Shown here in pieces: positions 25,328-28,234 of a stretch of DNA of 64,000 nt; position 1 is the stretch's first letter, and each line of letters starts with the position of its first letter. The stretch is from a virus. The stretch spans positions 115,403 through 179,402 of the IMG/VR virus record IMGVR_UViG_3300027906_000002; one strand, written 5' to 3'. Made by a program: the position numbers and the translations under genes. Under the pieces are notes generated by a model. That model was given only the letters and a program-made list of their open reading frames with translations. It was not told where the DNA came from and did not search any database.

Positions 25328-26728
25328 ATGTCTAACATTAAACAACTCCAAGAAAAGTGGGCCCCTGTTCTTAATCACGATGCTCTTCCAGAGATCGAGG
25401 ATACTTATAAGAAAGGCGTTGTAGCCCAACTTCTTGAAAACCAGGAAAAAGCACAGATCGAAGAAGGAAACATTCTTAACGAAACTCTTCAGACTGTAGG
25501 TACAGGTGGATATGGTGCTGGTAGTACCGCCACAGGTCCAGTTGCTGGTTTCGACCCCGTTCTAATCAGTCTTATCCGTCGTTCAATGCCTAAGCTAATT
25601 GCTTATGACATTGCTGGTGTTCAACCAATGACAGGTCCAACAGGACTTATCTTTGCGATGAGAACCAACTACGGTACAGAAAGAGATGCTACAGACTCTG
25701 ATTACAGAGAGGCATTCTTCAATGAGCCTAACGCTGGATTCTCTGGTGGCCCAGGTAATCGTCTTGCTGACTATGATCCTAGTGCTTCTGGTTCTGCAAT
25801 CAACGATGCTGAAGGTACTAACCCTGCATTGCTTAACGACTCTTCACCAGGAACTTACGAGTTAACAGGTGATGCCACTGGAATGGCAACAACCACTGCT
25901 GAAGCACTGGATGACAGCTCTGCTGCAACAGCCTTCAGAGAAATGGGTTTCTCAATCGAGAAAGTAACAGTTACTGCGAAGTCACGTGCTTTAAAGGCTG
26001 AGTACTCAATCGAACTAGCTCAAGACTTGAAAGCAATTCATGGTCTAGATGCCGAGCAAGAGTTATCAAACATTCTCTCAACAGAGATACTTGCTGAAAT
26101 CAACAGAGAAGTTGTTCGTACTATCTACGTTAATGCTGTAGAAGGTGCTCAGAACAATACTGCTGATGCTGGTATATTTGACCTAGACGTTGACTCCAAT
26201 GGTAGATGGTCAGTTGAGAAGTTCAAAGGACTACTCTTCCAAATCGAAAGAGATGCTAACGCTATCGGACAGCAAACTCGTCGTGGAAAGGGCAACATCT
26301 TGGTCTGTTCTGCAGACGTTGCTTCTGCTCTAGGAATGGCTGGTGTACTTGATTACACTCCTGCTCTTAATGGCAACAACGCTCTTACTGGTGTTGATGA
26401 TACTGCAAGCACACTTGTTGGTACTCTTAACGGTAAGATCAAGGTTTATGTTGATCCTTATTCTGCTAACGTTGCTGACAAGCACTTCTACGTTGCTGGA
26501 TACAAAGGTACTTCACCTTATGACGCTGGATTATTCTATTGCCCATATGTACCTCTACAGCAGGTCAGAGCAATTAATCCTAACACCTTCCAACCAAAAA
26601 TTGGCTTTAAGACTCGTTACGGAATGGTTTCTAACCCATTTGCTCAAGGTCTTACACAAGGTTCTGGTGCTCTTACAGCTAACACCAACAAGTACTACAG
26701 ACGTGTACAAGTTGCAAACATAATGTAA
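25328..26728 (+). CDS. gp23: Major capsid protein gp23
   Basis: LQEKWAPVL; GVQPMTGPTGLIFAMR; ELAQDLKAIHGLDAE; QPKIGFKTRYG. Confidence 0.98.
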   Translation: MSNIKQLQEKWAPVLNHDALPEIEDTYKKGVVAQLLENQEKAQIEEGNILNETLQTVGTGGYGAGSTATGPVAGFDPVLISLIRRSMPKLIAYDIAGVQPMTGPTGLIFAMRTNYGTERDATDSDYREAFFNEPNAGFSGGPGNRLADYDPSASGSAINDAEGTNPALLNDSSPGTYELTGDATGMATTTAEALDDSSAATAFREMGFSIEKVTVTAKSRALKAEYSIELAQDLKAIHGLDAEQELSNILSTEILAEINREVVRTIYVNAVEGAQNNTADAGIFDLDVDSNGRWSVEKFKGLLFQIERDANAIGQQTRRGKGNILVCSADVASALGMAGVLDYTPALNGNNALTGVDDTASTLVGTLNGKIKVYVDPYSANVADKHFYVAGYKGTSPYDAGLFYCPYVPLQQVRAINPNTFQPKIGFKTRYGMVSNPFAQGLTQGSGALTANTNKYYRRVQVANIM

Positions 26729-26750: not shown

Positions 26751-26779
26751 AAAGAGACCCCAAAGGGGTCTCTTTTTTT
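26751..26779 (+). terminator. Rho-independent terminator after gp23
   Basis: AAAGAGACCCC-AAA-GGGGTCTCTTT followed by a T run. Confidence 0.88.
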
Positions 26780-26783
26780 ATGC

Positions 26784-26789
26784 TAAATA
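26784..26789 (+). promoter_or_regulatory. Late promoter TAAATA for the aaRS-like gene and tRNA
   Basis: Directly downstream of the gp23 terminator, about 20 nt before ATG 26810. Confidence 0.65.
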
Positions 26790-26809: not shown

Positions 26810-27601
26810 ATGACAAGCTTGATTGATCCAAAGAAATATACTGAGACAGTGGGGCGTTTACGCTCCTTTTTTTTAGCCAAAGGATTCTATGAAGTACATA
26901 CACAAAACCGTTTAAGTATACTTGCTGCTTGTGAAGATCCAGAAACAGTAGCAACATATAATTACGGTGGTAATATATGGCCACTACCACAAACAGGTCA
27001 GATGTGGCTTGAACATGAATTACTTTCTAACCCTTCAGCAGAAGGGTTTTTCTGTGTCTCAACGTCTTATAGGGCAGAACCAAACCCAGTACCAGGAAGA
27101 CATGAAACGATCTTCCCTATGTTTGAGTTTGAAATGAAGGGGGATGTAGAAGATCTTAAGAGCATGGAGATTGATCTATGCAAATATCTAGGACTTCCTG
27201 AGTTAGATATAGAAACTTATGAAGACTGGTCTAATAAATTCAACACGAAAGAACTAGACCATGACCATGAAAAGGCAATTGGTTCTGGTATGATTACAGA
27301 GTTCCCTGAATGGACATCACCTTTCTGGAACATGTCTAGGAACGATGATGGAACCAGTAGAAAGATTGATGTTATCTTAGGTGGCATGGAAACCATTGGT
27401 AGTGCAGAACGCAGTACTGATAAAGAACAGATGCGTAATACCTTCTACACCATATCTGATGGTGGGTATGCTCAACTTATTATCGATAAGTTTGGTAGAA
27501 GTAGAGTAGAGAAAGAACTAGAAGACTTCCTCTCATTTGATTTCTTCCCTCGTTCTGGAGGTGGGATAGGAGTCCAACGTCTAATGTCAGCCCTTTCATA
27601 G
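26810..27601 (+). CDS. Class IIb aminoacyl-tRNA synthetase (Asp/Asn/Lys family) catalytic-domain-only paralogue
   Basis: Motif 1 LRSFFLAKGFYEVHT; motif 2 SYRAE...GRH..IFPMFEFE; ETIGSAER; motif 3 PRSGGGIGVQRL; 263 aa, with no N-terminal OB anticodon-binding domain. Confidence 0.88.
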   Translation: MTSLIDPKKYTETVGRLRSFFLAKGFYEVHTQNRLSILAACEDPETVATYNYGGNIWPLPQTGQMWLEHELLSNPSAEGFFCVSTSYRAEPNPVPGRHETIFPMFEFEMKGDVEDLKSMEIDLCKYLGLPELDIETYEDWSNKFNTKELDHDHEKAIGSGMITEFPEWTSPFWNMSRNDDGTSRKIDVILGGMETIGSAERSTDKEQMRNTFYTISDGGYAQLIIDKFGRSRVEKELEDFLSFDFFPRSGGGIGVQRLMSALS

Positions 27602-27609
27602 GGCTACAT

Positions 27610-27695
27610 TGTGAGGTGACGAAATTGGTAAACGTGTCAGTCTGTTTAACTGATGTTCCTGGCGGGACTTGAAGGTTCGACTCCTTCCCTCACAG
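27610..27695 (+). tRNA. tRNA with GTT (Asn) anticodon and long variable arm, 86 nt, no encoded CCA
   Basis: Acceptor TGTGAGG/CCTCACA + G73; D arm ACG/CGT with GG; anticodon stem TCAGT/ACTGA, loop CTGTTTA; variable arm GTTCC-TGGC-GGGAC; T arm GAAGG-TTCGACT-CCTTC. Confidence 0.9.
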
Positions 27696-27727
27696 TTTAT
27701 GCATATATAATATACTTGATATTTATT

Positions 27728-28234
27728 ATGAATCATAGGGTAGTTGATAATTTTTTAACCCATCATGAGTTGGCACATCTACAAGAAGTATATCTTGAAG
27801 ATGACTTTCCTTGGTTTTGGGGACCAACAACTGTACCTTATGAGGGATCCAATTGTGAAAATGAATTAGATAACTATCAATTCTACCATCCATTTTATGT
27901 TCCAGGAATGTATAATAATACACCGTACTGGAACATACTCGATCCTATAATAAAAAAACTTGGTGTTAGATCTCTTCTAAGAATAAAGGGAAACTTAACT
28001 ACAAGAACTACAGAAATAGTTGAACATGGATATCATGTAGATTTTAAATGGGATGATTCTTTAACAGCAATTTACTATGTTAATAGTAATGATGGGTATA
28101 CCATATTTGAAGATGGTACTAAAATAGAAAGTGTAGAGAACCGTATTGTCATCTTCCCAGTCCATCATAAACATAGTGGTACTAGTTGTACTAACGAAAA
28201 AAGAAGAGTTATTATTAATTTCAATTACTTCTAA
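27728..28234 (+). CDS. 2OG-Fe(II) oxygenase (prolyl 4-hydroxylase-like)
   Basis: VVDNFL start; HVD...TAIYYVNSNDGYT; NRIVIF; H.GT; R.IINFNYF; true start placed after the tRNA. Confidence 0.85.
   Translation: MNHRVVDNFLTHHELAHLQEVYLEDDFPWFWGPTTVPYEGSNCENELDNYQFYHPFYVPGMYNNTPYWNILDPIIKKLGVRSLLRIKGNLTTRTTEIVEHGYHVDFKWDDSLTAIYYVNSNDGYTIFEDGTKIESVENRIVIFPVHHKHSGTSCTNEKRRVIINFNYF

Follow-up and report, generated by a model that had tools for sequence, protein, structure and literature searches.

A tRNA gene at positions 27610..27695 of a cyanophage sequence and the gene whose stop codon lies 8 nt upstream of it, which encodes a 263-aa class IIb aminoacyl-tRNA-synthetase catalytic core (26810..27601; the ligase), may form a phage-owned enzyme/tRNA pair for asparagine codons, a reading to which we assign a probability of roughly 45%. 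Both genes, like every other feature located below, lie on the + strand of the window, by which is meant the whole stretch of 64,000 nt that was analyzed, itself part of a 179-kb record of a T4-like cyanomyovirus. Upstream of the cassette stand the portal gene gp20, gp21, gp22 and the capsid gene gp23 (25328-26728), and an intrinsic-terminator-like hairpin 3' of gp23 (26751..26775; an 11-bp stem, then a run of T) separates this capsid operon from the ligase and the tRNA. A CTAAATA box (26783..26789), which we take to resemble the T4-type late promoter of T4-like phages, is located about 20 nt 5' of the ligase start and may serve as the promoter of the cassette; no terminator was found between ligase and tRNA. 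No second tRNA was detected when the whole phage record was searched with a covariance model of the tRNA family at E values up to 10, and P-SSM2 likewise possesses a single tRNA (PMC3037559). Asparagine codons occur at 58.6 per 1000 in the phage versus 55.9 per 1000 in the host (a small host sample), and plain codon compensation was set aside as a weak motive, given these similar frequencies and the fact that this is the sole tRNA of the phage.

The structure of the tRNA is well defined by ARAGORN, Rfam, fold and covariation. ARAGORN calls a single tRNA in the window, a tRNA-Asn(gtt) at 27609-27696, in keeping with the GUU anticodon, and Rfam RF00005 matches 27610-27695 with 52.5 bits against a gathering score of 29. 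In the Rfam register, which is used for all tRNA numbering here and consists of a 7-bp acceptor stem followed by U8 and G9, positions 27610-27616 pair with 27688-27694, the D stem (ACG/CGT) comprises 3 bp and the D loop 11 nt, the anticodon stem comprises 5 bp, and the T arm (GAAGG/CCTTC) encloses the loop TTCGACT. The anticodon loop CUGUUUA (27642..27648) places GUU at 27644-27646 and U37 at 27647; the variable arm (27654..27670) is 17 nt long and has a stem of its own, which covaries in the family alignment; and the discriminator G73 (27695) is followed by TTTA, so that CCA is not encoded. Every tRNA feature that a sequence-only reading had described was recovered at its position by ARAGORN, Rfam, the sequence itself and the fold. 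An 8-bp acceptor stem that recruits base -1 was rejected, as this base is T in 51 sources and A in 29, and a shifted anticodon (Lys UUU, or four-base calls) was likewise rejected, such calls being errors that ARAGORN makes where a variant has a longer variable arm. The program also misses family tRNAs whose variable arms span approximately 25-45 nt, or labels them Lys or '???' (loci L018, L037, L052-L054, L058, L081, L360, L366 and L367), and the family will therefore be undercounted by annotation pipelines. The listed start of a 2OG-Fe(II) oxygenase ORF (27653-28234) falls within the tRNA; since its PHROG match begins at residue 26, the true start is probably the in-frame ATG at 27728.

In its composition the tRNA combines a Leu-like frame with asparagine ends. 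A GUU anticodon, G73 and a U1-A72 first pair are shared with canonical bacterial tRNA-Asn, and the type I body of the latter (4-bp D stem, 4-5 nt variable loop) and its A37, the t6A site in tRNAs that read ANN codons, are lacking. The host tRNA-Asn is a 72-nt molecule with a 4-bp D stem, a 5-nt variable loop and the anticodon loop CUGUUAA with A37; the phage tRNA resembles it in GUU, G73 and U1-A72, and differs from it by its 3-bp D stem, 11-nt D loop, 17-nt variable arm and U37. With bacterial tRNA-Leu it shares the 3-bp D stem, the Leu-type D loop and the long variable arm, whereas its G73 in place of A73, its first pair U1-A72 and its anticodon GUU are not those of tRNA-Leu. The family covariance model gives the window tRNA 108.5 bits, and the best matches outside the family are tRNA-Leu genes at 50-63 bits (54-59 bits in Prochlorococcus, 50-63 bits in huge phages). 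Upon alignment the phage D arm is nearly equal to that of host tRNA-Leu, and the acceptor end and anticodon (U1-A72, G73, GUU) are equal to those of host tRNA-Asn. Charging by LeuRS was rejected on account of the discriminator, which is G73 and not A73. The earlier description of the molecule as a chimera is thus borne out, with a body that scores as Leu and with U1-A72, G73 and GUU in common with host tRNA-Asn, and the roles once proposed for it fare unevenly: a mismatched amino acid appears less likely, because U1, G73 and GUU are invariant and A72 varies once while the rest of the molecule drifts; a role outside decoding is less favored, because it does not easily explain a GUU that is unchanged in 95 variants; and evasion of nucleases by way of the altered loop is possible.

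Strong structural selection acts on the tRNA, and its pairing lies far beyond chance, as 99.9% of cells form standard pairs among 53 distinct tRNAs of the close clade and 19 of 24 pairs show compensatory double changes among these homologs, in contrast to the 40-49% of cells that pair in controls in which the 3' partners were slid by 1-3 columns. Invariant in the close clade are U1, A72, G73, U8, G18, G19, parts of the T loop and G34-U35-U36-U37; positions 32, 33 and 38 are variable. The nucleotides upon which the tertiary fold of a normal L-shaped tRNA depends (U8, A14, G18, G19 and the TΨC loop) are retained. A wider sample of 42 further distinct tRNAs, whose ligases are 54-68% identical to that of the window, preserves U1 (42/42), A72 (41/42), G73 (42/42) and GUU (52/52), such that U1, G73 and GUU are found in all of 95 distinct tRNA variants and A72 in all but one. 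These are the identity nucleotides of tRNA-Asn according to established knowledge of tRNA identity; the markers of tRNA-Asn are thus fixed, and the body and the flanks of the anticodon are free to be unusual. At position 37 the wider sample has U in 29, G in 8 and A in 5, and at position 33 U in 30, A in 6 and C in 6. Across the family U37 is the majority state and not a universal one (94 of 105 distinct tRNAs), with a fully canonical loop, CUGUUAA, in some members. A purine occupies position 37 in 81 of 83 distinct other tRNAs from the same loci, which served as an internal control, the remaining two being ARAGORN mis-registrations; the peculiarity of U37, to which the sequence-only reading had drawn attention, is accordingly real. 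Within the family the variable region measures between about 5 and 39 nt and is short in one sub-clade (approximately 7 nt by hand count), and CCA is encoded by a majority of the more remote family members, unlike in the window's tRNA. In one ligase sub-clade (loci L369, L378, L385, L388, L402, L408 and L410) most of the linked tRNAs carry A33 (loops CAGUUUA and CAGUUAA) instead of the near-universal U33, and L388 carries C33 (loop CCGUUUA); the A33 state persists through considerable divergence within this sub-clade.

The ligase and the tRNA travel together as one unit. The same two genes, annotated as 'tRNA ligase' and 'tRNA-Asn', are present in P-SSM7, P-SSM2 and P-SSM5, and that the pair moves as a unit follows from the differing surroundings of the cassette, which follows gp23 in the window and in P-SSM7 and neighbors a lipase gene in the other two phages, P-SSM2 and P-SSM5. 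When IMG/VR was scanned with the ligase, at least 590 viral contigs proved to contain the cassette or a relative of it, of which the best 80 loci were examined together with the isolates. In this ligase-chosen sample the tRNA was present in 80 of 80 sources with sufficient downstream sequence, 10-20 nt from the last aligned ligase codon in 79 and 97 nt from it in one; the only sources without it were one huge phage and four contigs whose sequence stops too soon. A second sample was chosen by a tRNA-specific pattern made without reference to the ligase, and here the ligase lay directly upstream in 71 of 71 true tRNAs with room upstream, two seeming exceptions proving to be chance pattern matches with no tRNA; the scan thus found no tRNA without a ligase. 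Among more distant ligases (54-68% identical to the window's) the family tRNA follows downstream in 52 of 60 loci. In a maximum-likelihood tree, obtained by a quick search and not a careful one, the ligases linked to the tRNA fall into one clade (55 rows, 50 with the tRNA; SH-aLRT 91), with a few losses of the tRNA inside it and the tRNA-less forms outside.

The ligase itself is recognizable by fold and motifs as the core of a class IIb synthetase. It matches Pfam tRNA-synt_2, the class II D/K/N catalytic domain (E 2.9e-13, residues 14-262), and in PHROGs it matches phrog_29758, a family of unknown function. AlphaFold2 models it as a single domain with a pLDDT of 96.8, and a Foldseek search with this model ranks the cores of AsnRS (P. 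horikoshii, human and Brugia) and AspRS first and an archaeal asparagine synthetase at rank 44. The family profile matches AsnRS with an E value of 6e-15, AspRS with 1.5e-13, the archaeal asparagine synthetase AS-AR with 1e-6 and EpmA with 2e-5; in the ESM Atlas the only matches are 'viral tRNA ligase' clusters. None of the curated NCBIfam cut-offs is approached, as asnS scores 19-21 bits against cut-offs of 343-414, the best model, aspartate--tRNA(Asn) ligase, 28.5 against 353, and asparagine synthetase, with which the ligase has a core-only layout in common, 25 bits against 389. An N-terminal OB-fold anticodon-binding domain is absent from the 263 residues, according to the Pfam span and the single-domain model. 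When aligned with cyanobacterial AsnRS and with host AspRS and LysRS, the ligase retains class II motifs 2 and 3 and displays AsnRS-type residues in LExE after GQ, in ExE on the second strand of motif 2, and in the Arg of the ETIGSAER (GGSxR-like) strand; the Lys and Asp that mark AspRS, where they bind the aspartate carboxylate, are lacking. As judged from these residues, the pocket looks AsnRS-like. An EpmA-like enzyme acting on EF-P was rejected, in view of a pocket that is of the Asx and not the Lys type and of the weak EpmA match. As a stand-alone class IIb core of similar size with no OB-fold the ligase is comparable to AS-AR (PDB 3p8t, 3rex), AsnA and EpmA/PoxA, which act on no tRNA and, unlike it, have no linkage to a tRNA gene.

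The hosts bear upon the question as well. No AsnRS above the cut-off of the curated model was found in three complete Prochlorococcus genomes and Synechococcus RCC307, and the matches to this model in the four marine genomes are LysRS and AspRS only; as a positive control, the same model recovers AsnRS at 670-696 bits in Chlorogloeopsis, Synechocystis and Anabaena. With AsnRS not found and gatB present in 4/4 of the marine genomes, these hosts must make Asn-tRNA indirectly, and an infected cell would gain through the phage an AsnRS-like activity that it otherwise lacks. Genes of the AsnB family were above cut-off in only three of the four genomes, the exception being the high-light Prochlorococcus MIT 9302, which, unlike the other three, has no AsnB-family asparagine synthetase above cut-off.

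From these observations we infer charging by the ligase, the amino acid attached, decoding and the biological purpose in the following manner. The ligase and tRNA would be co-transcribed late in infection, as suggested by the late-promoter-like box and the uninterrupted stretch between the two genes, whereupon the tRNA would be processed and provided with CCA by a host enzyme. The ligase core would recognize the acceptor end (U1-A72, G73) and charge the tRNA, most likely with asparagine because of its AsnRS-like pocket, and the unchanged GUU of the charged tRNA would then decode AAC and AAU on the ribosome. The pair would add a direct route for asparagine, for example recycled asparagine, beside the non-discriminating AspRS and GatCAB of the host, and the Leu-like D arm, the long variable arm and the odd loop (U37, C33/A33) may keep host enzymes off. 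Such a phage-owned pair is favored because the tRNA is never found alone, the acceptor-end and anticodon nucleotides are fixed, and the host is without a matching enzyme. In addition, the invariant tRNA positions are those read by a class IIb enzyme and by the asparagine pathway, which counts in its favor, as do the structural selection on the tRNA and the CCA encoded by most of its distant relatives. Against the pair, a ligase without an anticodon-binding domain cannot itself explain the invariant GUU, which decoding must explain, and a supply of free asparagine is in doubt with AsnB-family genes above cut-off in only three of the four host genomes. U37, joined in some clades by C33 or A33, is poor for a decoding tRNA and likewise speaks against the pair, as do the tRNA-less sister clades of the ligase, its fusions to dihydroorotate dehydrogenase (DHODH) and OMP decarboxylase, and its acidity regardless of linkage.

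These last points are the substance of the alternative that survives best, which we nevertheless consider unlikely, namely that the tRNA is charged by the host, with AspRS reading GUU and G73 and GatCAB reading U1-A72, and that the ligase is a separate metabolic enzyme, AsnA/AS-AR-like or otherwise aspartate-activating, linked to the tRNA only by a shared pathway or a shared mobile cassette. The invariant nucleotides are indeed those that the host pathway reads, core-only archaeal asparagine synthetases match the ligase in profile and fold, and the ligase family extends beyond the tRNA-linked clade. The search for the ligase yielded at least 8000 protein clusters at 90% identity, and the family comprises 664 clusters at 50% identity with E values up to 0.001. 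Sister clades typified by P0130 and P0272 have no tRNA within 2-3 kb, and the tRNA-less sister ligases, counting these two types and those of huge phages, are about 47-58% identical. In two huge phages, LR756508 (484 kb) and LR756501 (735 kb), a homolog of approximately 47% identity has no adjacent tRNA; both phages have tRNA gene clusters elsewhere, and LR756508 possesses an ordinary 74-nt tRNA-Asn. Other relatives, about 55% identical, are fused at the N-terminus to DHODH, one of them verified as a single 597-aa ORF, and one relative is fused at the C-terminus to OMP decarboxylase; these two separate kinds of pyrimidine-enzyme fusion (P0271-P0277, P0123 and P0152; L422:2501-4294), none of which has a nearby tRNA, hint at a small-molecule, aspartate-linked activity. 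The motif 2 loop looks similar in tRNA-linked ligases and in one tRNA-less, DHODH-fused member, among the few sequences aligned. The ligases are very acidic, with a median pI of about 4.8 and a net charge of about -19, and neither value differs between tRNA-linked and tRNA-less members as grouped by a quick tRNA detector that misassigned a few loci. No matches were obtained when viral contigs were scanned with P0164, P0218 or the ORF of the huge phage as single-protein queries. A deoxyhypusine-synthase-family gene (L202:5471-6442) is found two genes from a tRNA-less ligase homolog on a 178-kb viral contig. The data agree with the tRNA having been acquired once, by an enzyme that was functional before the acquisition, and the ancestral work may have been either the charging of host tRNA-Asn or a small-molecule reaction.

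Against charging by the host, a host-charged tRNA needs no ligase, and yet the tRNA was never found without one. Further, free asparagine made by a synthetase would be unusable for translation in a host without AsnRS, and the ligase profile gives E values of 6e-15 to 1e-13 to AsnRS and AspRS compared with 1e-6 to AS-AR. The long variable arm and 11-nt D loop of the tRNA, to judge from known complexes, may in addition not fit AspRS or GatCAB.

It is also conceivable, if improbable, that the tRNA serves as a replacement in defense, its altered loop and foreign body resisting an anticodon nuclease or freeing the tRNA of host modification, and that a ligase reserved for it keeps the phage tRNA charged when host tRNA-Asn is cut. 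The positions flanking GUU are non-canonical while GUU is kept, and this is the sole tRNA of the phage. However, to our knowledge no Asn-specific tRNA nuclease has been described in Prochlorococcus, some family members have the canonical CUGUUAA loop, and the proposal overlaps with that of a phage-owned pair rather than replacing it. Phage tRNAs that escape nucleases through changes in the anticodon loop are documented, which lends the proposal some precedent (PMC10264068, PMC11555353). As in the tRNA described here, their loops depart from that of the host and the anticodon is kept; in contrast, they have a normal body and are served by host synthetases, with neither a dedicated ligase nor a type II body among their features.

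Equally doubtful is a function of the tRNA outside decoding, as a scaffold or as a substrate for modification. The ligase might amidate tRNA-bound aspartate in place of GatCAB, or add an amino acid to the anticodon loop in the manner of GluQRS; the tRNA might otherwise donate its amino acid to another acceptor, act as a decoy, or form a processing element at the 3' end of an mRNA. Truncated synthetase paralogs with such roles are known (GluQRS, AsnA and EpmA), GUU, mostly with U37, is invariant despite a ligase without an anticodon-binding domain, and U33 is not kept. If the ligase did use the tRNA as a scaffold or target, which we likewise hold to be a slim prospect, either as a one-protein, ATP-driven replacement of GatCAB or as a GluQRS-like modifier of the GUU(U) loop, then recognition by the enzyme, and not decoding, would account for the constancy of GUU, for the frequency of U37 and for the absence of U33 from some clades, and the fusions to DHODH and OMP decarboxylase (PyrD/PyrF) would reflect an ancestral chemistry that activates the side-chain carboxylate of aspartate. 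However, all nucleotides of the tertiary fold of an L-shaped tRNA are retained, CCA is encoded in distant members, GUU would be needless for a processing element, and no candidate acceptor gene is linked to the cassette across the differing genomic contexts of the window, P-SSM7, P-SSM2 and P-SSM5.

The nearest published system is ProRSx/tRNA-ProX of Streptomyces and Kitasatospora, in which the gene for a synthetase isoform lies beside a hybrid tRNA gene whose acceptor identity is Pro and whose anticodon is that of Ala, Thr or Asn, and for which mistranslation has been shown (PMC10404621). Pipelines name tRNA-ProX by the anticodon alone, and one member is annotated as tRNA-Asn (PMC10404621). 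The phage cassette similarly consists of a synthetase-like gene and an unusual tRNA gene that are adjacent and co-inherited, with annotation based upon the anticodon and with enzyme and tRNA clades that track each other. It differs in that acceptor end and anticodon both indicate Asn, the body being the sole foreign part, and in that the enzyme is a bare catalytic core of viral origin with a putative function. Deliberate mistranslation by the phage tRNA, through a charge other than Asn (unconverted Asp, or Ser attached by host SerRS, which reads G73 and a long variable arm) that would partly recode the AAY codons of late proteins, is very unlikely, for although the type II body with G73, the resemblance of the cassette to ProRSx/tRNA-ProX (PMC10404621) and an odd D loop that might block GatCAB would favor it, the identity elements of acceptor end and anticodon both indicate Asn, the sub-clade with a variable region of some 7 nt deprives SerRS of a general handle, the ligase pocket is without the Lys and Asp of AspRS, and the A73 needed by LeuRS is absent.

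The literature search yielded no functional study of the phage tRNA or the ligase, the only mention found being a table row, 'tRNA ligase', for P-SSM2 and P-SSM7 (PMC3037559). The cassette is common in ocean viromes and is carried by the well-known Prochlorococcus phages P-SSM2, P-SSM5 and P-SSM7, and as culturable phage-host pairs exist, the question is directly testable in the laboratory. If the two genes do form a phage-owned pair, they would represent a naturally occurring class IIb synthetase of minimal size that is blind to the anticodon, together with a tRNA partner that host enzymes may not recognize, which would bear upon the evolution of tRNA identity and offer a ready-made pair for engineering of the genetic code. 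The virus would thereby add direct Asn-charging to hosts that possess only indirect transamidation, with relevance to the nitrogen economy of infected Prochlorococcus, and a tRNA would be seen to stay functional under selection with U37 and, in some clades, without U33. In P-SSM7 a further tRNA of 73 nt (L001:2897-2969), with the Leu anticodon UAA and no long variable arm, is situated just upstream of the ligase, and is in this respect the mirror image of an Asn tRNA with a Leu-like body.
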